Shown here piece after piece: positions 6,826-17,812 of a stretch of DNA of 32,000 bases (its first letter is position 1; each line of letters starts with the position of its first letter). The position numbers and the translations under genes were made by a program. The notes under the pieces are model-generated. The model saw only the letters and a program-made list of their open reading frames with translations. It was not told the origin of the DNA and did no database searches. The stretch is from Pyrofollis japonicus (lineage in GTDB: Archaea > Thermoproteota > Thermoprotei_A > Sulfolobales > Pyrodictiaceae): positions 765,126 through 797,125 of the forward strand of contig NZ_AP028634.1 in NCBI RefSeq assembly GCF_033097485.1. The letters run 5' to 3'.

Positions 6826-7792
6826 GCGCGAACTAGTTGTCGGAGAGAAACTCAAGAAGTACTTCGTCCACGGCGGCGTATTCGGCAAGAAAATAGTGAG
6901 GGCTGTTGACGGCGTCGACATAACCGTGTATCGTGGAGAAACACTTGCGCTCGTAGGCGAGAGCGGCTGCGGCAAATCAACCCTCGGTAGGCTGCTCCTC
7001 CGGCTCTACGAGCCGACAAGCGGCAAGATAGTGTTCGACGGCGTCGATATAACCCATATGCCGGAGAAGCGGCTCAGACCCCTACGGAAGAGAATGCAGC
7101 TCATACCCCAAGACCCCTACGCCAGCTTCAACCCCCTGAAGAGGATAGGAGAGCAGCTCGAAGAACCACTCCTCGTCCACAAAATAGCCCCGCCAAGCGA
7201 GGCGAGGAGACGCGTCCTCGAAGGACTCGAAGAAGTAGGCCTAGTACCAGCCGAGGACTTCTACCGGAGATACCCCTACCAGCTCAGCGGCGGCCAGCTC
7301 CAAAGAGCAGCAATAGTCAGAGCAATGCTGCTAGAACCAGACTTCATAGTAGCCGATGAGCCGACATCCAGCCTCGACGTCTCGGTGAGAGCAGGGATAC
7401 TCCGACTACTAAAGGACTTCAAGGACAAGCTAGGAGGCTCAATGCTCTTCATAACACACGACCTAGCCACAGCCAAGCTGATAGCCGACCGCATAGCAGT
7501 AATGTACCTCGGAAAAATAGTCGAACTAGGCCCAGCAGACAAGGTGCTCACAAAGCCACTACACCCCTACACAGCCGCACTACTAACAGCAATACCGAGA
7601 ATATCGCGGAGAAAACCACCAATACAAGTCGAACTCAAAGGAGACGTACCAGACCCCTCAAGAATACCAAAAGGATGCAGACTACACCCCAGATGCCCCT
7701 TTGCATCAGAAGAATGTAAGCAAAGGGAGCCCGAACTAAGCGAGAAGGCACCTGGTCACTACGTGGCCTGCCATCATCCCCTAAGCGCTTAA
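6809..7792 (+). CDS. Peptide ABC transporter ATP-binding protein (DppF/OppF-like)
   Basis: Walker A GESGCGKST, signature LSGGQLQR, Walker B IVADEPTSSLD, and a C-terminal HPYTAALL…CRLHPRCP. It overlaps the previous gene by 17 nt. Confidence 0.92.
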   Translation: MPEMPRRELVVGEKLKKYFVHGGVFGKKIVRAVDGVDITVYRGETLALVGESGCGKSTLGRLLLRLYEPTSGKIVFDGVDITHMPEKRLRPLRKRMQLIPQDPYASFNPLKRIGEQLEEPLLVHKIAPPSEARRRVLEGLEEVGLVPAEDFYRRYPYQLSGGQLQRAAIVRAMLLEPDFIVADEPTSSLDVSVRAGILRLLKDFKDKLGGSMLFITHDLATAKLIADRIAVMYLGKIVELGPADKVLTKPLHPYTAALLTAIPRISRRKPPIQVELKGDVPDPSRIPKGCRLHPRCPFASEECKQREPELSEKAPGHYVACHHPLSA

Positions 7793-7903
7793 AAGACTCA
7801 CTTACTTTAATAGGTTACGAAAGACGCCATTTACGCATCATTACAGAGAATACTAACACAAGCAACATAGAATTTTCTCGCCTACCATAATGGATGAACA
7901 GTT

Positions 7904-8944
7904 ATGTTGCAGACGATAAGCCGTTGTATCGCTAAGTACATAGCATGCAAAGACCTTCGTACCGAGGCAGAGGAAATAGCAAAAGAGTGCAAAATCTCAA
8001 CAAAAACTTATTGGGCCATAATAAGCAGGTTACGAAGCAATCCTTACAAATACTGGCCACAACACATACGCGATATCCGCCCACTAGGACTCGCTACAAT
8101 TATTGTTCGAGGCAAGAAACACTTACCCGAAGTGAAAGATGTTGAAGACCTTAAACGGACCAATGTTCCTCTATACCGCTACATGCATTCCTACAGAGAA
8201 ACCTTCGACGGAGCAACTATTTACAGTTATTTTGCTCCACAAAACCTCATAGATGACTTTATGGATGTACTTGAACAGCTTGGAGACGTAGACTACGGCT
8301 ACACCATACCGGTTAGGCCACAATGTGACAATACTGGCAACAGGCAAGATGCAACACTATTTGTGCCAAGCCTACCAAGTAGAATTTCAAGAATGCTTGC
8401 CCTACTAATCTACGCCTTACTAGACCTATCGCCCTTAGCACGCCTCAGCGAACTCTTAGATATAGCTCCGGTCCTGCGCGAAAGGCTAAGTATTACGAAC
8501 ACTCGTTATAGGCTTCACATGGGTAAAGTAGTGAAAACATACATGAGGCTAAGCGAGAGCCGCCTTCTAGGACGTGTTCTACTCCTACTGCTTGCCTTAA
8601 AAACAGAAAGACCAATACCAATGTATATCGAAGTAAAGCGAGAATGTAGCCAACACCTCTATGAAGTAGCGGCTGAAACTTGGTCTGCGCCAAGCATATT
8701 CATCGGGAAGAATGTAGCAGCAACAGTAATGGTCCTGCCGGACGAATTAAGCCAGAAAGTAAAAGATAGGCTAAAAGAGTGCATAACACACGCAAATATA
8801 GTAACAAGGGGATTCGGCACAACACTACCCATAGAAATGTACGATCCCTGCAAAAGAGAGTGGAAGTTACAAGAACAACCTCTCCTAAAGAACATAGCTG
8901 TATTCCTAAAAAGAAAAGATAGTGGGAGATTATGTCAACTCTAG
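7904..8944 (+). CDS. Hypothetical protein with two HTH-like segments (possible DNA-binding protein), low-GC gene
   Basis: 346 aa. The N-terminal segment RTEAEEIAKECKISTKTYWAIISRL and an internal LSPLARLSELLDIAPVLRERL resemble helix-turn-helix units. I recognise no other family motif. The composition is lower in GC than the flanking operons. Confidence 0.45.
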   Translation: MLQTISRCIAKYIACKDLRTEAEEIAKECKISTKTYWAIISRLRSNPYKYWPQHIRDIRPLGLATIIVRGKKHLPEVKDVEDLKRTNVPLYRYMHSYRETFDGATIYSYFAPQNLIDDFMDVLEQLGDVDYGYTIPVRPQCDNTGNRQDATLFVPSLPSRISRMLALLIYALLDLSPLARLSELLDIAPVLRERLSITNTRYRLHMGKVVKTYMRLSESRLLGRVLLLLLALKTERPIPMYIEVKRECSQHLYEVAAETWSAPSIFIGKNVAATVMVLPDELSQKVKDRLKECITHANIVTRGFGTTLPIEMYDPCKREWKLQEQPLLKNIAVFLKRKDSGRLCQL

Positions 8945-10950
8945 CCTCTATATACAATAAAGTATGTTATGAATATCGGATACCAGGAATATTGCTCTTC
9001 GTTGCTAGTAAAGTAGAGATTTTCTGACGGATACCCTAGATGAGGCGTCATTTTGACTAGATCGAAGTCCCCTCCGCCATAGGGCTCAAGACTGGAGACC
9101 TTGAGCTTTACAATAATGGCTGTCTCGCCGTAATTCGTATATGCATAACTAATCAAATTACCGCTGATAGCAGCCAAAGTTGAAGCAAGTCCTCCCTCCT
9201 CGCCGACTACCGCAGATATTACCCACTTCAATGGCATCTGTAATACTCCTATTACTGCTCCCGCAATGCTTGTTCTATAAGAGTATACCTTATTTGTATC
9301 TATCACCTCTAGGATGCTGTCACTAGGTTGTAGATGAAAGCTTTTCCAGACATAATTAGACCTTGTAGCTCCAACTAACTCATAGTATTTATCCATGTAT
9401 GCTTGATATTCAGACGATCCCGTCTTTACTCTTATTCCTCTTAGAGAATCCCAGTCTACACTAACTCCTTGCAACGGAGTAAAAGCAACAATTGGTTCGA
9501 CGACCCAGTATTCATGAGAAATACCCTGGTAATCTGGCACGTTCTTTTTTGTCACATAGTAGTCTATAAACACGCCATCTCCGCTACTATAAATGTACAA
9601 ATTCTTTGTTATTATGAACCCGACGTATCCTTGGTCTAGATAATGTAGCGACAGATCAGTTAATCCAAGTCCGCTTGTCACAGCTTTTCTTTCCTCTCCT
9701 ATGAATATTGTATTTACAATAGATAATCCGTTCTTGTAGTAACGGCCCTCGTTCGCAGATATCGCAAGTTGAAATTGCAGGTTATTTGATGTACATCCGG
9801 ATTGGCATACTCCTGCTAGCCTGAGGAGAGGTGCGTCCTCTATGCTCTTTAAGTAAATGCTTGCATCTTGCCAAGTAGGGTAATGATTAGGCTCAAAGTA
9901 TATTCCTATGTTTTTAGCTATTTTTGTCCAGAATGCTTGAAGCGTTAGTAGCCCTGCTAGTCGTGGTTCTTGATCCCATAGAGGATCATACCATTCTCTT
10001 AGTGCATTGTATATTGCGCTATCGAGAGGGCATGTTGACGGTATGTATACTCTTGTTGAGAATTTTTCTGCGAATTCGTGATACATTAGCTTCTTTTCTG
10101 TATCGCTTAGTCCTCCCTGTAGGTGTTGCATGTAGCTGCTTGGTGGTTGGGCGTTATATAGGTCGGGTATTGTTATGAAGTCGCCATCTGTTAGCTGAAG
10201 ACCGTATTGCTTATAGTTCTTTATTGTTACTACTTCGCATCCACTTGGTAGTCGTGTACCCGTGACCGCTGCTCTCGTTCTCTGAGTCGTTTTGTTCTTC
10301 AAGAGTGGCTCTTGATAATATTTTTCCACTATGCTTGCATAGAGCTGGGTAACATTAACCAGCGCGAACTGCTTTGCCGGAATAATTACCGTTCCGGCAT
10401 GAAGTACTAGGTAGGGATCCTTTTCAACCGCCTTGAGGGGGTTCTTGTACTTTGCCAACGCTATGTCGTAACTTCCTACTATTGCTGAACCTAGGTAGTG
10501 GTTGCCTTTATTATCGTAGAGCATTAGGAGGACTGTTATCGCAGATGCCTCTTCCTTAAATATCTTTAACATTGTGGGATTCTTTGCAGAGGCTATGTTC
10601 TTCTTAGAACTTTTTACCAATTCATAAGTATTTATCTGCGCCTTTATTTCGACCTGGCCAGGCTTTATCTCTACAATTTTTGCTATCGGTTTTGCTCCGG
10701 GAGCAGTAGCTATTATCTCTGCAAATCCATAGAGTTTTCCTGCGCCCGGTATGGTGGGCAGTTTGGCTACAATGCTTACTGTATAGCTTTGACCCCAGAG
10801 TCTCGGAGCTGCAATATACGAGGCACTGCCTGCAATGATGAATACGACTAGGAAAGCTGCTAATGTGTGCTGAGCTATGAGTCTCACCATTTTCTCAACC
10901 ATTCTTCTGAGTATATGCGTCAATGCAATAGACCCGACTCTATAACACAT
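8941..10950 (-). CDS. Large secreted or membrane-anchored protein of unknown function (orphan)
   Basis: 669-aa ORF that is too long to be a chance ORF. It has an N-terminal signal/anchor MVRLIAQHTLAAFLVVFIIAGSASYIAAP. The likelier starts are ATG 10902 or 10890 rather than 10950, which sits almost on the AT-rich promoter-like tract CTATTATAATTTTA. A sample line (9001-9060) is ~42% GC. Confidence 0.6.
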   Translation of the reverse strand: MCYRVGSIALTHILRRMVEKMVRLIAQHTLAAFLVVFIIAGSASYIAAPRLWGQSYTVSIVAKLPTIPGAGKLYGFAEIIATAPGAKPIAKIVEIKPGQVEIKAQINTYELVKSSKKNIASAKNPTMLKIFKEEASAITVLLMLYDNKGNHYLGSAIVGSYDIALAKYKNPLKAVEKDPYLVLHAGTVIIPAKQFALVNVTQLYASIVEKYYQEPLLKNKTTQRTRAAVTGTRLPSGCEVVTIKNYKQYGLQLTDGDFITIPDLYNAQPPSSYMQHLQGGLSDTEKKLMYHEFAEKFSTRVYIPSTCPLDSAIYNALREWYDPLWDQEPRLAGLLTLQAFWTKIAKNIGIYFEPNHYPTWQDASIYLKSIEDAPLLRLAGVCQSGCTSNNLQFQLAISANEGRYYKNGLSIVNTIFIGEERKAVTSGLGLTDLSLHYLDQGYVGFIITKNLYIYSSGDGVFIDYYVTKKNVPDYQGISHEYWVVEPIVAFTPLQGVSVDWDSLRGIRVKTGSSEYQAYMDKYYELVGATRSNYVWKSFHLQPSDSILEVIDTNKVYSYRTSIAGAVIGVLQMPLKWVISAVVGEEGGLASTLAAISGNLISYAYTNYGETAIIVKLKVSSLEPYGGGDFDLVKMTPHLGYPSENLYFTSNEEQYSWYPIFITYFIVYRG

Positions 10951-11293
10951 ATAGAGTAAAATTATAATAGTCCTACCTCTAAGGGTTTGATAATTAGCTT
11001 TTTCTTAAGAAGTTTCTTGGCTTCAAAAGTGTTCATAGAATTAGAAGCGCTAAGTAGTGGGCTATTTCACTAATTTTCTCACATTTCTTTATTTTAGCGT
11101 TACAAAAACTCGGAATCTAGCACTAGATCGTGATATTAGTAAGAGGGTAACGGTGACGTGTAATGGTACTTTGAATTTTCATTAACGGTTGTAGAGAATG
11201 CTGTCTAGGGTTATTAGATTTGTAAAGTGCTATAACTGCATAAATAAATTTATATTGTGGTCTGGTTTGGAGAGGCTAGAAGGGTTCCACGGC

Positions 11294-11737
11294 TTGCTGA
11301 GTAGAGACCGCGAGCTGGAGACAAGGCTGGATCAGAAGGACTACAAGTTGTTGGAGCTGCTTAGGCAGAATGCTAGGGAGTCTTATGCTGCTCTTGCCGC
11401 GCAGTTGGGGATCTCCGAGTCTGCTGTGCGCAAGCGGATAATGAAGCTGAAGAAGCTTGGCGTGATAAGGAGGTTTACTATCGACTATGACGTGCCAGGC
11501 GAGGTGGTTGCGCTCATACTCGTAAAGACGCAGCCACCGGTACAGACACCAGATGTTTCCCGGAAGATTCTCCAGAACCGTATGGTTGAGAAGGTGTACG
11601 AGGTCACGGGGGAGTACGATATATTGGTTATTGCAAGGGCGAGGTCGTCGCAGGACATAAACAGCATAATAGACTACATAAGGTCTATCGAGGGGGTACA
11701 GAGCACCTATACTATGATAGTGCTGCGCTCATACTAG
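11294..11737 (+). CDS. Lrp/AsnC-family transcriptional regulator
   Basis: HTH region LDQKDYKLLELLRQNARESYAALAAQLGISESAVRKRIMKLKKLGVIRRF followed by a RAM/ACT-like C-terminal domain. The track ORF starts at 11198, but its first ~30 codons run through an AT-rich promoter-like tract (11239-11256). In-frame TTG codons at 11267 or 11294 give a family-typical length. Confidence 0.85.
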   Translation: MLSRDRELETRLDQKDYKLLELLRQNARESYAALAAQLGISESAVRKRIMKLKKLGVIRRFTIDYDVPGEVVALILVKTQPPVQTPDVSRKILQNRMVEKVYEVTGEYDILVIARARSSQDINSIIDYIRSIEGVQSTYTMIVLRSY

Positions 11738-12847
11738 GCATTTCTCGACATAGAGCTCTACCAGTAGCTTCGCCACGGTTTCCACGTCGTTCTTTGTAAC
11801 TGCTCCCATTACTCCTATTCTCAGCATCTTCTCCCGGTACTCGCTCATCCCTGTTGCAACTATGTAGCCGTTTTCTGCCAAATACTTCTTCGCGTCCAGC
11901 GCCGACATGCACTTGGGGACGAGGAAAGCAGCTACTGTCGCGCTCCGGTAATCGCTGCGCAGAACGAAGGCCTCGTAGCCCCTCCTAGTCAGCTCGTCGT
12001 ACAGTATGTTTGCCTTGGCGCGGTGTTCTCTCCGTATATTCTCAACGCCTTTCTCCCTTACCAGGAGGAGGGCCTCCCTCAGCCCATACATAACCGTTAT
12101 CGGTGCCGTGAATGGCGTCTCTCCCCGGTCCTTTAGGAACCAGTGGTAGCGGGCGAGATCTATCGCTGGTGGGACGTCTATGCTGCTCTGTCCCCTCTTC
12201 TCGAGCACCTCGACAGCTTCGCGGCTGACCATTACTATTGCTGCGCCTGGGGGGGCTGCCAAGGCCTTATGGGTGGCCGTGGCCACGGCGTATACGTTGC
12301 GGAGACGTATATCCTCGACAGGGAACCCTGAGACAGAGTCGACAAGGGTTTTCACGCCATATCGCTCAGCTAGCCTTGCCAGCCTCTCGACGTCGCGGAA
12401 GGCGAGCCCAGTACTAGTCTCATTGTGAACCACTAGTAGGTAGTCGTAGTTTTCCTCCTCGAGGCGCCCTAAGACCTCTTCTACAAGGGGCCCCCTACGG
12501 GGATCCACGTAGGCCCTATGAACGCATGCTCCCCGCGCTTCCGCGGAATATGCTAGGCGTTTCCCGAATTCGCCCCCGACGAGCGCCAATACCTTGCTAC
12601 GGGGCTCAATGAGGCTCCAAACCATGGCGTCTACTGCCGTGGTCCCGGTTCCCGGAAGCACGTAGGCTTCTTCCGCCGATGCGAGCGAGGATAACTCTTC
12701 AACTATTTCTCTCAGTAGTTGTCTGAACTCCTGGCTCCGGTGACTGATAATTGGCTTGGCTAGCGCGCTGAGTACTCTCTCGTGGAGCTCTATGGGGCCT
12801 GGGGTCATGAGCTTGGCCATCGCTTTCCACCCCTCTTGCTGGTACAC
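11729..12847 (-). CDS. Class-V PLP aminotransferase (serine-pyruvate/alanine-glyoxylate/phosphoserine aminotransferase type)
   Basis: 372 aa. N-terminal LMTPGPIELHERV, PLP-lysine context ATHKALAAPPGAAIV, and overall class-V layout. It lies immediately downstream of the dehydrogenase gene. Confidence 0.85.
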   Translation of the reverse strand: MYQQEGWKAMAKLMTPGPIELHERVLSALAKPIISHRSQEFRQLLREIVEELSSLASAEEAYVLPGTGTTAVDAMVWSLIEPRSKVLALVGGEFGKRLAYSAEARGACVHRAYVDPRRGPLVEEVLGRLEEENYDYLLVVHNETSTGLAFRDVERLARLAERYGVKTLVDSVSGFPVEDIRLRNVYAVATATHKALAAPPGAAIVMVSREAVEVLEKRGQSSIDVPPAIDLARYHWFLKDRGETPFTAPITVMYGLREALLLVREKGVENIRREHRAKANILYDELTRRGYEAFVLRSDYRSATVAAFLVPKCMSALDAKKYLAENGYIVATGMSEYREKMLRIGVMGAVTKNDVETVAKLLVELYVEKCLV

Positions 12848-12854
12848 ATGGCTC

Positions 12855-13853
12855 CTAGCAGTTGAGGCCCATTTCTTCTAGCTGGTCGCACACCGGCTTG
12901 ATCGCCTCCTCTGCCTCTGGGCAGCAGATTCCGAGCCTCCTTGTTATCGCTGCTAGGGAGAGTATTGCTACGCGGTACTGTGCCTCCTCCGTGGAGGCGC
13001 CTATGTGTGGGGTCACTATTACTCTTGGGTGTTCGAGGAGCTTCTTCTCCGCTGGGGTGGCTGGGGGCTCGTGCTCTAGTACGTCGAGGCCGGCAGCGTA
13101 GACCTTGCCCTCTTCTAGTGCTCGGAGAAGTGCCTCGGCGTCGACGACTGCCCCCCTGGACGTGTTTATGAATATTGTTCTCGGCTTCATGCACTCGAAT
13201 AGCTTGTCGCTGAACAAGTGGTAGGTTTGCTTCGTTAGCGGCACGTGGACTGAGACCACGTCGGCTGATCGGAGCGCCTCGCAGAGGTCGTATACCGGCT
13301 CCACGCCTAGGCTCCTAGCACTCCTCTCGATATCTATGACGTCGTACGCTTTTACTCTCATGCCGAGCGCCTTGGCCATTGCCGCTACTCTTCTACCGAT
13401 GCGGCCAAACCCTACCACCAACAGCGTTTTCCCGTAGAGTTCTAGGCCGCGTTCCTTGAGCCACACACCGTTCCTGGCACGGTAGTTTAGCCACGCTATG
13501 CTCCTCGCGGCTGCAATCATTAGGCCTAATACTAGCTCCGCCACGCTCTGCGTTGAAGCCGTAGGGGTATTCACAACCTCCACCTCATACCTCTTAGCAG
13601 CCTCAAGGTCAATGTTGTCCAAGCCGACACCGGCACGCACTATTAGCCTTAGCCGCCCCTTCCTACCAGCAGCAATGATCTCACCATCAACCCTTGTACG
13701 GCTCCTCACAACGAGCACGTCGTAGCCTGGTACAAGCCTCAGCAGCTCATCCCTCGTGGCGCCGAGCCTCTCGTCTACCCGTATACCGCACCGCTTTGCC
13801 AGTTCGTGGAAGACCTTGTGCAAGTGATCCGTCACGAGGATTCGGACATCCAT
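12855..13853 (-). CDS. serA: D-isomer-specific 2-hydroxyacid dehydrogenase (D-3-phosphoglycerate dehydrogenase or glyoxylate/hydroxypyruvate reductase type, no ACT domain)
   Basis: NAD-binding motif VVGFGRIGRRVA and catalytic-region motifs NTSRGAVVD and TPHIGAST. ATG 13853 (MDVRILVTD…) fits the family N-terminus. The track ORF begins at GTG 13865, which would overlap the upstream gene by 8 nt. Confidence 0.85.
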   Translation of the reverse strand: MDVRILVTDHLHKVFHELAKRCGIRVDERLGATRDELLRLVPGYDVLVVRSRTRVDGEIIAAGRKGRLRLIVRAGVGLDNIDLEAAKRYEVEVVNTPTASTQSVAELVLGLMIAAARSIAWLNYRARNGVWLKERGLELYGKTLLVVGFGRIGRRVAAMAKALGMRVKAYDVIDIERSARSLGVEPVYDLCEALRSADVVSVHVPLTKQTYHLFSDKLFECMKPRTIFINTSRGAVVDAEALLRALEEGKVYAAGLDVLEHEPPATPAEKKLLEHPRVIVTPHIGASTEEAQYRVAILSLAAITRRLGICCPEAEEAIKPVCDQLEEMGLNC

Positions 13854-14544: not shown

Positions 14545-15087
14545 TGGGTCTAGTCCGTCACGGTATAGGAGGCGGAAGGACTCGACGAATACGCGGGTAC
14601 GAGAACCCTTGTAGCGATCGAGTACTTGTTTTACTTCCTCCCGCGCTAGGCCAAGCTTTTCTCGGCTCCCGAAGAGGCATTGGAGACAAACATCTCTATC
14701 TAATAGCCATCCGAATCCAAGCGGTCACCCCTCCGCGCGCCCAGACTCTAACCAGTAGTCGTCGGGAAACAACTAGCCCCACGTACAAGGCTTTAAAAAC
14801 ATTGCCCCCATGCACCAAGCGAATACTGTGAGATTTTACGTATCTCCTAACGATTAGCTGTATACTCGGTATTGTAGATTATAAGAACCGCTACAAGAAG
14901 AAGCAATATTCTGGATAACAATGCATGCAATGCAATTATTTAAATGAGCATAATACTGAAAACAGAGCTAGATTCACTTGAAGAGTGTTATGACAAGCGA
15001 AGATCCACACTCTCCGTATTTTCGTATTGACTCGCTCAAGTTTCCTAAGATGAAGAGAAGTATACAGACTAAAGACTAAAGTAATAA

Positions 15088-15099
15088 GCCCGAGGCTTA
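15088..15099 (+). repeat. Left copy of the 12-bp direct repeat GCCCGAGGCTTA (inside the hairpin TAAGCC-CGA-GGCTTA)
   Basis: Exact 12-mer, repeated at 16927-16938. The two copies bracket the two-gene AT-rich cassette. Confidence 0.4.
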
Positions 15100-15251
15100 A
15101 AACGCAATTCACTATCTAAGTCTTTCTTTTCGTAAACAAGATATACTTATTTACTGCACTATATATGAAATTACAACACCAATTGTATTTCGCATTATTA
15201 TTGAATTAGATTTAAAATATGTACATACCATAATAATATTTAAAACAAACT

Positions 15252-15261
15252 AACATAAATA
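15252..15261 (+). promoter_or_regulatory. Putative TATA/BRE-like element AACATAAATA upstream of the nuclease-like gene
   Basis: The AT-rich box is centred about 27 nt upstream of GTG 15284. The identical 10-mer recurs at 17006-17015 upstream of the 252-aa orphan. Confidence 0.35.
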
Positions 15262-15283
15262 CATTCAAAGCTGGAGACACAGA

Positions 15284-16033
15284 GTGCCTCTGCCTATCGA
15301 CCTTTATTGCACCAACCCCATAATTTATAAGAACGCACACATAATGACTAAAAATAAACGTATCTGGGGACGTATTGAGTTTCGTGCTCAGTTATCTATA
15401 AGTTTTAACCACCTAGTTAACCAGGTTCTTGCTAATATCAGCAGGAGGAGACATGTGAGAAGTATAGATATTTATTCAAATATACTTGAAAAGATAAATT
15501 TCGACTATACTGAAAAATTTATACCTGGCTTAAGGGAAGCCTTCCCCTTTTACCACATAGGATATAGGCCTTATACGCCCTGGCATAGCCAAAACACTAA
15601 TATAAAAACCGCAACCGGCATAAGATATCCTCTCATTCAAAAATACTTTTCAGGAGACATATCCGGCAATATTGGTGAAAGCTTATTCGTCTACATAACA
15701 ACAATGATCTATGGAGCATCAAGAATAATCCACCTTAGACCGGAAAAAGCTATTATGTTAACACCAGACTTTGTAGTACTTGACCCTACAGACATAGTGA
15801 GACTAAGCCCATTACTATGCAATAATTCACCAACTATATCAAATTACTCAAAACTATTTGTTGAGTGCAAGACTTCAGCGAGCGGCCAAAATGATCGCAA
15901 TAAAATAGCCAAAGGTCTCGCGCAATTACTTACTACAATAGACTACGGCGACTTAGGAATACTATTTCTAGTACAGAGGGACCAACCAAATCAGTTACTG
16001 TCCGCTACTTCAATACCGTTAATAAGGAGGTGA
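15284..16033 (+). CDS. PD-(D/E)xK (restriction-endonuclease-like fold) nuclease-domain protein with an unknown N-terminal domain
   Basis: 249 aa. The ordered motifs are E132 (GNIGESLF), D162 (TPDFVVLD), E194-x-K196 (LFVECKTS) and Q214 (KGLAQLL). The start is GTG 15284, with an alternative ATG at 15344. A sample line is 35% GC. Confidence 0.65.
   Translation: MPLPIDLYCTNPIIYKNAHIMTKNKRIWGRIEFRAQLSISFNHLVNQVLANISRRRHVRSIDIYSNILEKINFDYTEKFIPGLREAFPFYHIGYRPYTPWHSQNTNIKTATGIRYPLIQKYFSGDISGNIGESLFVYITTMIYGASRIIHLRPEKAIMLTPDFVVLDPTDIVRLSPLLCNNSPTISNYSKLFVECKTSASGQNDRNKIAKGLAQLLTTIDYGDLGILFLVQRDQPNQLLSATSIPLIRR
16026..16033 (+). promoter_or_regulatory. Shine-Dalgarno GGAGGTGA for the partner gene, embedded in the last codons of the nuclease-like gene
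   Basis: The 8-nt sequence is complementary to the conserved archaeal 16S 3' end (…GAUCACCUCC). It sits 7 nt before ATG 16041 and contains the upstream TGA stop. Confidence 0.6.
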
Positions 16034-16040
16034 ATAATGT

Positions 16041-16715
16041 ATGAATTCTGAAAGATTCGAATCAGAAAGAAAAGAAGTATATGAGAAACTCACAGTAGAA
16101 GCGGCAGAAAGACTTCTAGAGATATATAATGCTTTATGGATATATGATTTTGACAAGGTGCTTGAGATAGCAGATTACGCTCTCAAAAGCATAGATAAAG
16201 AATTGCAAAAAACTGGTTTAACAAGTAAAACCTTAGTAGAAAAGGCCCGAAGTTTGAAACAAAAAGTGAAAAAAGAGGCACCAGGCCATGAGATTACAGT
16301 CCTAGCGCCAATTATTGTAAGGCTTACTAGGATCCGTGACCAGGCAACGCAAATACAACAAGCACAAAGAATAGGGATAATAAAACCGCCGAAACGCCTC
16401 AGGTATTGCAGACTTCTCAGTACTGGTGAAATATATCTAGCCCGCTGCCTATTACCAGGCTCATTAAAAATAGAGGACCAAAGTACTATTAAAACCGTTT
16501 TTATGCAACTAAATCCTTTGGACCTAGAAGTATATACCATAGGTGCAAGCATGGAAGCAAGAATCTGGCTTCAAAACATGATAATAGACGTCACACTAAT
16601 AGAAAACAAGCTTGAAATAAGGGTGCTGGCTTCGCCTAAAGCCAGGGAAAACGCAGAAATAATAGAGAGCATAATAGACAAAATATTCTCAAATCTTAAT
16701 AATGTAATGGTGTAA
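16041..16715 (+). CDS. Hypothetical protein: Lys/Glu-rich helical N-half and beta-rich C-half; partner of the nuclease-like gene
   Basis: 224-aa ORF starting 7 nt after the previous stop, with a strong SD. It shares the very low GC of the upstream gene. I recognise no family motif. Confidence 0.6.
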   Translation: MNSERFESERKEVYEKLTVEAAERLLEIYNALWIYDFDKVLEIADYALKSIDKELQKTGLTSKTLVEKARSLKQKVKKEAPGHEITVLAPIIVRLTRIRDQATQIQQAQRIGIIKPPKRLRYCRLLSTGEIYLARCLLPGSLKIEDQSTIKTVFMQLNPLDLEVYTIGASMEARIWLQNMIIDVTLIENKLEIRVLASPKARENAEIIESIIDKIFSNLNNVMV

Positions 16716-16753
16716 ATATGAGAGTAGATTAATTCAAAATAACGCGTTGATTA

Positions 16754-16773
16754 AAATAACCTTAAATAACCTT
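16754..16773 (+). repeat. Perfect tandem duplication AAATAACCTT x2 just downstream of the cassette
   Basis: aaataacctt|aaataacctt read directly. The related AAAATAAC also occurs at 16735-16742, and the palindrome AACGCGTT at 16741-16748. Confidence 0.5.
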
Positions 16774-16926
16774 TAGAAATTCAAAGACGTACTCTTATTG
16801 CTCTTTTCGGCTGCACCGTACCTTTTGATCCTGGTTAGGGCCATACTAGTTAACAATACGTATGACATAGCCAGAATAGTCTACATTTTGTACAACACTT
16901 CGATAAAGCAGCTAAAGCACCTAGAG

Positions 16927-16938
16927 GCCCGAGGCTTA
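16927..16938 (+). repeat. Right copy of the 12-bp direct repeat GCCCGAGGCTTA
   Basis: Exact match to 15088-15099 on the same strand, located in the intergenic DNA after the cassette. Confidence 0.4.
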
Positions 16939-17005
16939 CCCAAGAACTACAAAGTAGGCTTTAAAGAATAATGTTACAGCCACATTAAATGTCTGTACGC
17001 AATAA

Positions 17006-17015
17006 AACATAAATA
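17006..17015 (+). promoter_or_regulatory. Putative TATA/BRE-like element AACATAAATA upstream of the 252-aa orphan
   Basis: Identical 10-mer to 15252-15261. It lies about 40-60 nt upstream of the candidate starts GTG 17054 and ATG 17072. Confidence 0.3.
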
Positions 17016-17053
17016 GCTTTTGTATACACACTCTAGTAATCGGTGCCTGAGCT

Positions 17054-17812
17054 GTGCCACAACCCCATCAAATGAGAGTCATAGGTGGTAAAGTCAAGGG
17101 TGTTGTTGCCTCTGGGCCCGTGCTGAACGGATTAACGAGGTGGATAGGTCGTCTAGCGGTTAACGCAATCGCACGTGATGCTCTAACAGCACTACTAGAA
17201 TTAGAAAATGGGAACAAGAATGGCTTAGCACAGTCCCTAAAGGCTCTCGAAAGCATTATTAGAAGCGACTCGGCTATTACTATTGCCTCAAACTGGCTCC
17301 GGAGACTAGCCAACGAGTTAGGGATAGGTTACCGTGATGCGATTAACCTAGCACATGCTATATACTCCACAGATGCTGCAGGCGACGACCTAATATTCGT
17401 AATAAAGCCATCCCAGGACTTAATTGACTCAGAGAGGTTAGAGGAGTCGATAAGGAGTGGTGCCCTCGAGCTAAGAGAGCTAAGGAGACTAGGCGTCTAC
17501 ACAGCATGCCCAAGCCGCGGCACGCTCCCCGTCATGGCCGGCGTGGACGCGACGGCCCAAAATACGCCTAGTCAACTACTACGCCTCGCAAGCAGGCTTG
17601 GAAGACGTACAAGGCAGAAGGGTCTCTTCGGAACCGATAAGGCGTATATCAGGGTTACCAGGCTGGAAGGCCATTGCGACCCCACGCTCATAACAATACC
17701 GAAGAAAGTCATTGTGCTAATATACGGCGACTGGCTAAACGGCCTCGCAACAATAATTAAGGCAATAATGGGTGGGAAGGCGAAGTACATGGTATTCTAC
17801 GACTTCACCTAA
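17054..17812 (+). CDS. Hypothetical protein (orphan) with host-like GC, embedded in the AT-rich segment
   Basis: 252-aa ORF with a GTG start and an alternative ATG at 17072 (MRVIGGKVKG…). I recognise no Walker, HTH or catalytic motifs. The ORF length and codon composition support coding. Confidence 0.5.
   Translation: MPQPHQMRVIGGKVKGVVASGPVLNGLTRWIGRLAVNAIARDALTALLELENGNKNGLAQSLKALESIIRSDSAITIASNWLRRLANELGIGYRDAINLAHAIYSTDAAGDDLIFVIKPSQDLIDSERLEESIRSGALELRELRRLGVYTACPSRGTLPVMAGVDATAQNTPSQLLRLASRLGRRTRQKGLFGTDKAYIRVTRLEGHCDPTLITIPKKVIVLIYGDWLNGLATIIKAIMGGKAKYMVFYDFT

Follow-up and report, generated by a model that had tools for sequence, protein, structure and literature searches.

The genes ORF1 (PYJP_07800) and ORF2 (PYJP_07810) are adjacent on the plus strand of the chromosome of the archaeon Pyrofollis japonicus, within an analyzed stretch of 32,000 nt (positions 765,126 to 797,125 of contig NZ_AP028634.1; hereafter, the window, whose numbering is used for all coordinates in this genome). 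With moderate confidence, we interpret this cassette as an autonomous, horizontally mobile two-gene module, the most likely role of which is defense against foreign DNA. The interpretation draws on a PD-(D/E)xK nuclease motif placed on a matching predicted topology, the strict co-inheritance and co-evolution of both genes, their coupling and purifying selection, foreign base composition, a patchy spread across the two prokaryotic domains, and recurrent defense genes in the neighborhoods of related loci. In the proposed mechanism, ORF1 would be the effector, a metal-dependent endonuclease of the PD-(D/E)xK type, and ORF2 would be its non-enzymatic partner, kept in a fixed proportion to ORF1 via translational coupling. 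As a sensor or regulator subunit, ORF2 might bind ORF1 and license, target, or restrain it. We infer the formation of a complex by the two proteins, the cleavage of DNA by ORF1 in response to a trigger, and the protection of the host against viruses or plasmids.

The original prediction, made from the nucleotide sequence, described the cassette as a defense- or toxin-type module. The first of these two options is favored here and the second is disfavored, because several lineages carry a disrupted ORF2 beside an intact ORF1. The pair is part of no PADLOC-catalogued system, classical restriction-modification (R-M) system, housekeeping nuclease family, or typical toxin-antitoxin (TA) family, and no paper describing the pair or its motifs was found in the literature searched.

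Organization and co-inheritance of the gene pair

ORF1 (15284..16033, plus strand) starts with GTG and encodes 249 amino acids (aa); its product is a predicted PD-(D/E)xK-type nuclease that founds an unannotated family. ORF2 (16041..16715, plus strand), its obligate partner, starts with ATG and encodes 224 aa with no recognized catalytic motif. The start codon of ORF1 is preceded by GGAG located 6 nt upstream, and the start codon of ORF2 follows the end of ORF1 after a gap of 7 nt. A Shine-Dalgarno-like motif for ORF2, GGAGGTGA (16026..16033, plus strand), contains the TGA stop codon of ORF1, an overlap that, at the level of sequence, indicates translational coupling of the two genes. Both open reading frames, the 7-nt gap, and the GGAGGTGA motif had been described in the original prediction, and all of them were verified.

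The GenBank model of PYJP_07800 comprises 192 aa and starts at V58 (GTG at 15455), skipping positions 15284-15454 of the window. This model appears too short, because the alignment with the homologs of ORF1 begins at residue 3, residues 3-57 being conserved, and the model reaches a predicted local distance difference test score (pLDDT) of approximately 90 over the first 60 residues. The public annotation is thus probably truncated at the N-terminus, the true start being the GTG at 15284, which yields the 249-aa protein. The existence of homologs and the purifying selection on both genes (ratios of nonsynonymous to synonymous substitution rates, dN/dS, of 0.07-0.24 for ORF1 and ORF2, counted where dS is unsaturated) indicate that ORF1 and ORF2 are real genes rather than chance reading frames.

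Related loci were collected by exact-protein look-ups and from a genome collection and a metagenome collection, amounting to 85 sequence sources. A gene of the ORF2 family is located immediately downstream of ORF1 on the same strand in 58 of the 60 informative loci. The 66 non-redundant ORF1 groups are composed of 58 paired groups, 6 groups situated at a contig end, and 2 unpaired groups, both represented by truncated copies of ORF1. In 38 of the 58 pairs, the intergenic distance is 0, -1, or -4 nt; therefore, coupling elsewhere would proceed via abutting or overlapping stop and start codons rather than via a Shine-Dalgarno motif of the kind seen in the window. An all-versus-all comparison of the neighboring genes revealed no third conserved gene. 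The only neighbor that recurs outside the R-M/helicase subclade described below is a DUF6602 protein, encoded within 1.5-3.5 kb of the pair in just two loci, L004 (12205-12969) and L007 (5546-6457), with 42% identity between the two copies and otherwise unrelated contexts.

The distance matrices of ORF1 and ORF2 are strongly correlated across the 43 intact pairs (r = 0.88), a value that was reached in none of 2000 Mantel permutations. ORF2 evolves faster, with a mean identity of 21% versus 35% for ORF1, and both ORF2 and the N-terminal domain of ORF1 are far more variable than the nuclease core.

Lesions of one gene next to an intact copy of the other were observed in both directions, all of them in metagenomic assemblies. 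Full-length ORF1 genes with intact motifs are accompanied by ORF2 genes carrying nonsense mutations (L001/L002, L051, and L043), frameshifts (L057 and L079), or truncations (L083 and L019). A comparison of L001 (at ~1541) and L002 with L003 shows that a single C-to-T substitution converts a CGA arginine codon of ORF2 into a TGA stop within the conserved YLAR motif, the ORF1 sequences being 100% identical; this difference represents a population-level polymorphism. The reverse state, a broken ORF1 with an intact ORF2, was found in the L047 group, L064, and L011. Since each gene is found broken beside the intact other, neither ORF1 nor ORF2 appears to be an indispensable antidote. As judged from these sequences, the pattern of lesions fits an effector that would be harmless without its partner or without its trigger.

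The predicted nuclease family and its partner

An exhaustive search of 1.84 billion representative proteins with a hidden Markov model (HMM) yielded 87 clusters of the ORF1 family, all of which consist of proteins of at most 277 aa and contain no fusions. No member of the family bears a name in public sources. Scans of ORF1 against Pfam, NCBIfam, PADLOC, and PHROGs gave no match; when the 16- and 75-sequence ORF1 alignments were used as profiles against PDB sequences, nothing relevant was returned; and a Pfam scan of each of the 75 aligned members, aimed at a divergent bridge, produced VRR_NUC as the sole nuclease match (E = 0.078, not significant). Nothing credible was obtained for ORF2 in Pfam, NCBIfam, PADLOC, and PHROGs. 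The original prediction had recognized no match for the N-terminal ~120 aa of ORF1 and for all of ORF2; neither full protein matches any Pfam, NCBIfam, PADLOC, or PHROG family or any PDB sequence. Two matches of ORF2, CelTOS (E = 0.0046, below the cut-off) and phrog_5375 (E = 0.0053), were dismissed as chance matches between coiled helices.

Conservation was counted over 66 non-redundant ORF1 homologs from all loci, leaving out the members that lack a given position. All residues of the catalytic type are conserved without exception: E132 (64/64), D162 (66/66), E194 (65/65), K196 (65/65), and Q214 (64/64). The original prediction had placed these residues correctly, in GNIGE132, TPD162F, VE194CK196, and LAQ214L, and had staked its nuclease assignment on the conservation of the first four, which extends to all 66 homologs wherever the position is present. 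In the 75-member alignment A5, the residues of the catalytic motif are invariant or conserved in at least 90% of members. On the DNA, the PD element (P161-D162, start of strand 2) occupies 15764..15769, the (D/E)xK element (E194-C-K196, strand 3) occupies 15863..15871, and Q214 (helix 2, after the ExK strand) occupies 15923..15925, all on the plus strand.

Equally conserved wherever the position is present are Y90, the FSGDxSG loop (residues 122-128), and H150. The loop belongs to the segment K120-x-F-S-G-D-x-S-G-x-I-G-E132 (15641..15679, plus strand), which includes the start of helix 1, ends with the first acidic residue of the nuclease motif (E132), and is invariant in 62-64 of the 66 homologs; the exceptions are truncated homologs without the position and one homolog with R in place of K120. 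Strand 1 carries the segment H150-L-R152-P153-E-K155 (15731..15748, plus strand; H in 66/66, R in 62/66, and K in 63/66), in which R152, P153, and K155 are nearly invariant. The FSGDxSG loop together with H150, R152, and K155 is the most intriguing feature of the family outside the classical nuclease motif.

The AlphaFold2 model of ORF1 (pLDDT 82.9, predicted TM-score 0.84) is composed of an N-terminal beta-rich domain (residues 1-78; 15284..15517, plus strand), a poorly ordered linker, and a core that includes helix 126-142, strands 148-151, 163-165, and 191-198, helix 205-218, and strands 224-232 and 239-248. A short helical insert is modeled between strands 163-165 and 191-198, and residues 120-124 have pLDDT values below 50. 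The predicted order of the core elements, alpha-beta-beta-beta-alpha-beta, is the one known in PD-(D/E)xK nucleases, with the conserved Glu modeled in helix 1, the Asp where strand 2 begins, the ExK residues on strand 3, and the Gln in helix 2. Foldseek searches of two independent libraries returned top matches that are mostly PD-(D/E)xK enzymes, each individually non-significant; these include BglI, SfsA, HincII, cap-snatching endonucleases, phage exonucleases, Hjc, UL24, YqaJ, and DUF2800. Based on the motif, the predicted topology, and these non-significant structural matches, ORF1 very probably adopts the PD-(D/E)xK nuclease fold. The same assignment in the original prediction is therefore borne out, at the level of prediction, by a confident model topology and by the placement of the residues. 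The N-terminal domain varies between clades and is poorly conserved in alignments A1 and A5; it is possibly a specificity or oligomerization domain. Of the 43 family members considered, 40 have a basic ORF1 (median isoelectric point, pI, of 9.5), and no membrane segment was found in ORF1.

ORF1 shares the motif order and the predicted core topology with the members of the PD-(D/E)xK superfamily (Hjc, BglI, HincII, SfsA, and YqaJ/lambda-exonuclease-like enzymes), but differs from them by its extra N-terminal beta domain, the helical insert between strands 2 and 3, the additional invariant motifs FSGDxSG and HxRPxK, a dedicated partner gene, and the lack of any Pfam, NCBIfam, or PDB match. It is further distinguished from Hjc and NucS/EndoMS by its rare and patchy occurrence, its non-native base composition, and the lack of a Pfam match to Hjc or NucS.

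A stand-alone version of the ORF1 nuclease core, the 151-aa protein P0012, was observed in L009 (8001-8456), L020 (429-884), and L021 (947-1402). All catalytic residues are retained in P0012 and its C-terminal tail is unique; the N-terminal domain is missing, and neither an ORF2 gene nor a remnant of one accompanies it. In L009, it is surrounded by the MazE-PIN and HepT/MNT toxin-antitoxin genes. P0012 could be either a decaying remnant or a functional minimal variant.

The predicted model of ORF2 (mfe678e2eba6e, pLDDT 89.5) consists of two domains. The N-terminal domain (residues 1-112; 16041..16376, plus strand) is modeled as a four-helix bundle with an invariant W33-x-x-D36 turn and an invariant R70. 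The C-terminal domain (residues 113-224; 16377..16712, plus strand) is a beta-sheet with two helices that weakly resembles PsbP, Mog1, and TM1622. In a Foldseek comparison with PDB, this domain matched PsbP (E = 2.6e-3) and TM1622 (E = 3.3e-3) with probabilities of 0.93-1.00, the TM-scores being low (0.24 for the query and 0.33-0.38 for the targets) and the identity being approximately 10%. The common features are the beta-sheet and the flanking helices, whereas the low TM-scores, the absence of a Pfam match, and the four-helix bundle, which has no counterpart in these proteins, set ORF2 apart from the Mog1/PsbP-like fold. Proteins with the PsbP/Mog1/TM1622 fold are binding or adaptor domains rather than enzymes. 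The invariant columns of the ORF2 alignment A4 are W33, D36, I51, R70, L95, Y132, and I215, and no known catalytic motif was found among them. The possibility of ORF2 being an acidic mimic of DNA was ruled out by the range of pI values in the family (5.2-9.7).

A direct hhalign comparison of the bacterial second gene with the archaeal ORF2 profile was not significant (probability ~2%, E ~0.02). An iterated HMM spanning the full set of loci recruited the bacterial partners with E-values from 5e-6 to 3e-33. By these sequence comparisons, they are likely homologous to the archaeal ORF2; the assignment is less firm for L015 (Anaerolineae), the weakest link.

Foreign composition, distribution, and genomic neighborhoods

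The gene pair has a GC content of 37.6%, compared with 53.9% for the window outside its two low-GC islands. The GC content at third codon positions (GC3) is 0.32-0.36 in the pair versus 0.52-0.67 in the neighboring genes. The flanking housekeeping genes, which encode a 2-hydroxyacid dehydrogenase, an ARMT1-like phosphatase, an MBL-fold hydrolase, and an FAA hydrolase, have a GC content of 55-58% and GC3 of 0.56-0.67. The hand counts of the original prediction (0.350 for 15601-15660 and 0.550 for 13001-13060) are exact, and its description of the region as AT-rich foreign DNA was confirmed; the segment is narrower than the island that had been proposed, however, and spans approximately 14802-17033, i.e., the pair and its non-coding flanks. 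According to the composition profile and sliding-GC segmentation, the AT-rich non-coding leader of this insert (14802..15283, plus strand), the presumed carrier of the promoter, has a GC content of approximately 32%, and the low-GC segment ends with an AT-rich non-coding trailer (16716..17033, plus strand).

The resulting 2.2-kb insert contains no other mobile-element gene. As originally stated, the genes that adjoin the window pair yielded no methyltransferase, ATPase, helicase, or integrase. Neither tRNA genes nor Rfam elements were found in the window, and the flanks of the insert show neither convincing direct or inverted repeats nor att-like sites. The 252-aa reading frame located directly downstream (17054-17812, PYJP_07830) is an orphan, forming a singleton cluster among approximately 15 billion proteins. 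It has a host-like GC content, is conserved together with the pair in no other locus, and was excluded from the module.

A scan of 185,579 species-representative genomes with a near-invariant peptide motif revealed three loci in unrelated phyla and no locus in any other Pyrodictiaceae genome. The hosts of the pair include Pyrofollis (Crenarchaeota) and metagenome-assembled genomes (MAGs) of Bathyarchaeota, Anaerolineae, and Acidobacteriota, and the pair is also present on many metagenome contigs from hydrothermal, hot-spring, and sediment samples. The original prediction had considered the outcome of a syntenic core gene pair shared by all relatives; the three loci detected, whose contexts differ from each other, do not follow that pattern. 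No matches to the family were found among viral contigs of IMG/VR (2.9 million), phage genomes of INPHARED (50,697), and plasmids of PLSDB (72,556). Among the 21 loci with enough flanking sequence, 19 have a pair with a higher AT content than the flanks. Genes for integrases, TraG, or Prim-Pol are located nearby in some loci, and the copy in the Bathyarchaeota MAG adjoins a tyrosine recombinase.

The genomic neighborhoods of the pair repeatedly include defense genes. In one archaeal subclade, a type IIG R-M enzyme (PADLOC E = 7e-59) is encoded directly beside the pair in approximately 7 loci, being located 10 nt upstream on the same strand in L066, and a BrxHI/Lhr-like (E = 8e-111) or DrmA/DpdJ-like helicase is encoded just downstream of the pair in approximately 8 loci. 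The pair in L060 has a prokaryotic Argonaute (pAgo; E = 1e-53) on one side and a complete type I R-M operon on the other, and in the bacterial locus L081, the HsdS gene overlaps the start of ORF1. The L004 pair is surrounded by two integrases, HerA/DUF87, TraG, a methyltransferase, SLFN_AlbA_2, DUF6602, and MazE, and the neighbors in L009 and L011 include MazE-PIN, HepT/MNT, HEPN/MNT, and AAA_21. In the remaining loci, AbiEi/AbiEii, Shedu, Hma, Mokosh, PbeA, PLD nucleases, integrases, and Prim-Pol were observed, along with housekeeping genes and unknown ones. In qualitative terms, this pattern is as expected of defense-island cargo or of genes embedded in larger defense loci. The original prediction had proposed defense-island cargo based on composition, and that proposal is strengthened by the related loci located amid R-M, DISARM-like, pAgo, Abi, and TA genes.

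On thermophile metagenome contigs, a recurrent multi-gene locus seen in L066 (4248-14669) and also in L063, L064, L049, L040, and L051 comprises, in this order, a IIG-like fusion of restriction endonuclease and methyltransferase (~1210 aa), the ORF1/ORF2 pair, a BrxHI/Lhr-like helicase on the opposite strand (~994 aa), a DrmA/DpdJ-like helicase (~780 aa), and a 635-aa unknown protein; it may represent a composite DISARM-, Dpd-, or BREX-like system in which the pair is embedded. An AbiJ_NTD5-DUF4145 gene is embedded in the same type of locus in L051/L072. Directly upstream of the pair in L025 (1688-7964), there is a DISARM-like set formed by a DrmA/DpdJ-like helicase (805 aa), a 799-aa MZB/DUF1998-PLD (DrmC-like) fusion, and a PglXI-like/N6_N4 methyltransferase (490 aa). 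The pAgo gene of L060 (3955-6285), which contains a Piwi domain, is located approximately 1.5 kb from the pair, and a relative that is detectable by BLAST and Pfam-negative is found at a similar distance in L010 (119-1636), which suggests that the pAgo neighborhood is recurrent. Two proteins of 614 and 622 aa neighbor the pair in L016 of the Acidobacteriota MAG (7586-9430 and 11520-13388). The N-terminus of the former matches a PADLOC model of a pAgo-associated endonuclease-like protein (E = 7e-10); the latter appears patatin-like by a GGGxRS motif noticed on reading the sequence, with no confirmation from a scan.

The second low-GC island of the window (7840-11260; 41-45% GC) contains two convergent genes of unassigned function, 7904-8944 (plus strand, 346 aa, PYJP_07740) and 8941-10950 (minus strand, 669 aa), neither of which has matches in Pfam or PADLOC. 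The island adjoins an Lrp/AsnC regulator (11198-11737) and is possibly another accessory or foreign insert.

Proposed defense role and alternative functions

Among the known systems, Hachiman (HamA, a DUF1837 nuclease, and the helicase HamB) and Gabija (GajA and GajB) also combine a nuclease effector with a second protein in one operon, are located in defense islands, and are patchily spread by horizontal transfer. Unlike the second proteins of these systems, ORF2 bears no enzymatic signature, be it of a helicase, an ATPase, or another type. In many loci, the pair is located within or against R-M or DISARM-like operons (between the IIG gene and the Lhr-like and DrmA-like helicases, behind HsdS in L081, and following the methyltransferase in L025), similar to PrrC/RloC and to the 'guilt-by-embedding' PDC/HEC candidates of PADLOC; however, ORF1 and ORF2 have no homology to them, and the window copy and many others stand alone with no R-M neighbor. 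In contrast to classical type II R-M systems, only ORF1 and ORF2 are co-inherited, and no cognate methyltransferase was found around the window pair. Methyltransferases are present in a minority of loci, where they are parts of self-contained type I or type IIG systems.

A number of observations weigh against a defensive role carried out by a nuclease. The association with defense genes is qualitative, and housekeeping genes flank many of the loci, including that of the window. The PADLOC-DB release used (v2.0.0, threshold E ≤ 1, PDC candidates included) dates from 2023, and later systems would be missed. Among the structural matches of ORF1, none is significant (best E = 0.12), and no profile link from ORF1 to an established nuclease family was found. 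Finally, the FSGDxSG loop and H150/R152/K155 lie outside the classical nuclease motif and are not explained by a simple nuclease.

A more specific mechanistic version of the defense reading is a restriction-like enzyme without a cognate methyltransferase, either of type IV (modification-dependent) or a PrrC-like second-line effector guarding an R-M system. In this case, ORF1 would cut modified or marked foreign DNA, and the target would be recognized by ORF2 or by the variable N-terminal domain of ORF1. Consistent with such an enzyme, the pair has no conserved methyltransferase partner, yet R-M genes (IIG, HsdS, and N6_N4 methyltransferases) often adjoin it, and the nuclease core varies much less than either ORF2 or the N-terminal domain of ORF1. 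Mrr and McrBC adjoin hsd in the immigration control region of Escherichia coli, and PrrC is embedded in a type Ic R-M locus; by analogy, the arrangement of the pair resembles both. Type IV Mrr-like enzymes likewise are PD-(D/E)xK proteins that lack a cognate methyltransferase and often lie near type I R-M systems. Nonetheless, neither ORF1 nor ORF2 matches Mrr_cat or a reader domain (SRA, EVE/PUA, or YTH), ORF2 is no McrB-type GTPase or ATPase, and R-M neighbors are absent from the window copy and many others; we regard this version as unlikely. A slightly smaller chance is given to an addiction module, in which ORF1 would be a nuclease toxin neutralized by ORF2, or the reverse, and which would stabilize the mobile DNA that carries it. 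The pair resembles type II TA systems in its compact, translationally coupled two-gene operon, its mobile and patchy distribution, and its presence in TA-rich regions with MazE-PIN, HEPN/MNT, and AbiE genes. It differs from them in that both proteins are large (~225-250 aa), in that ORF2 has no antitoxin DNA-binding fold (ribbon-helix-helix, helix-turn-helix, AbrB, or Phd) and is not consistently acidic, and in the repeated inactivation of each gene beside the intact other, toxin-only states being tolerated in the metagenomic assemblies.

The pair could instead serve the DNA transactions of a mobile element itself, e.g., with ORF1 as a structure-specific resolvase or recombination nuclease and ORF2 as its accessory subunit, acting in integration, replication, or transfer rather than in immunity. 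The spacing of the E...D...ExK residues and the weak structural matches do resemble Hjc-type resolvases and phage recombination exonucleases, and some loci are located inside elements with integrase, TraG, HerA, or Prim-Pol genes. We consider this role improbable, because the pair shows no consistent linkage to genes for integrases, replication, or transfer and the searched collections of viral contigs, phages, and plasmids contained no member of the family; the 2.2-kb insert of the window is likewise devoid of any other mobile-element gene. Still less probable is the explanation that ORF1 is not a nuclease and uses the scaffold for another activity or for binding, e.g., the binding or hydrolysis of a small nucleotide at the Ser/Gly loop, His150, Arg152, and Lys155. 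In its favor, the conservation of FSGDxSG, H150, R152, and K155, which lie outside the classical motif, is as strict as that of the motif itself, no structural match is significant, and the FSGD loop is modeled at low confidence. Inactivated or repurposed PD-(D/E)xK domains, however, usually lose their catalytic residues, whereas ORF1 keeps them all, the four catalytic residues and the Gln of helix 2 being invariant and correctly placed on the predicted core.

Returning to the defense module, a fuller scheme may be put forward tentatively, as a possibility that we would not yet favor. The pair might be an unrecognized immune system of archaea and bacteria, in which a non-enzymatic partner, combining a four-helix bundle with a Mog1/PsbP-like domain, licenses a new family of PD-(D/E)xK nucleases. 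These nucleases would carry a second invariant site, FSGDxSG/His150/Arg152/Lys155, with a sensing or regulatory function directed, e.g., at a nucleotide or at the partner. Such a system could work alone, as in Pyrofollis, or as a PrrC-like second-line effector within R-M or DISARM-like loci.

Archaeal defense systems other than CRISPR and R-M are poorly charted, hyperthermophiles being especially under-sampled. In a survey of 7,747 archaeal genomes, nearly one-third had no other detected system (2026; PMC12988326). Many candidates that combine a nuclease effector with an accessory protein are present in defense islands; the pair described here is unusually well delimited, spans both prokaryotic domains, and comes from a hyperthermophile. 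It is a compact candidate, formed by two proteins of ~230 aa with clear catalytic residues for mutation, and its bacterial orthologs are suited to standard phage-challenge assays. Should the pair not be defensive, its additional strict motifs, carried on a PD-(D/E)xK scaffold, would nevertheless point to an uncharacterized enzyme family. If its defensive role is validated, the pair would provide both a new nuclease family and a new type of non-enzymatic partner, and one module that works alone as well as within R-M and DISARM-like loci would bear on the organization of layered defense.

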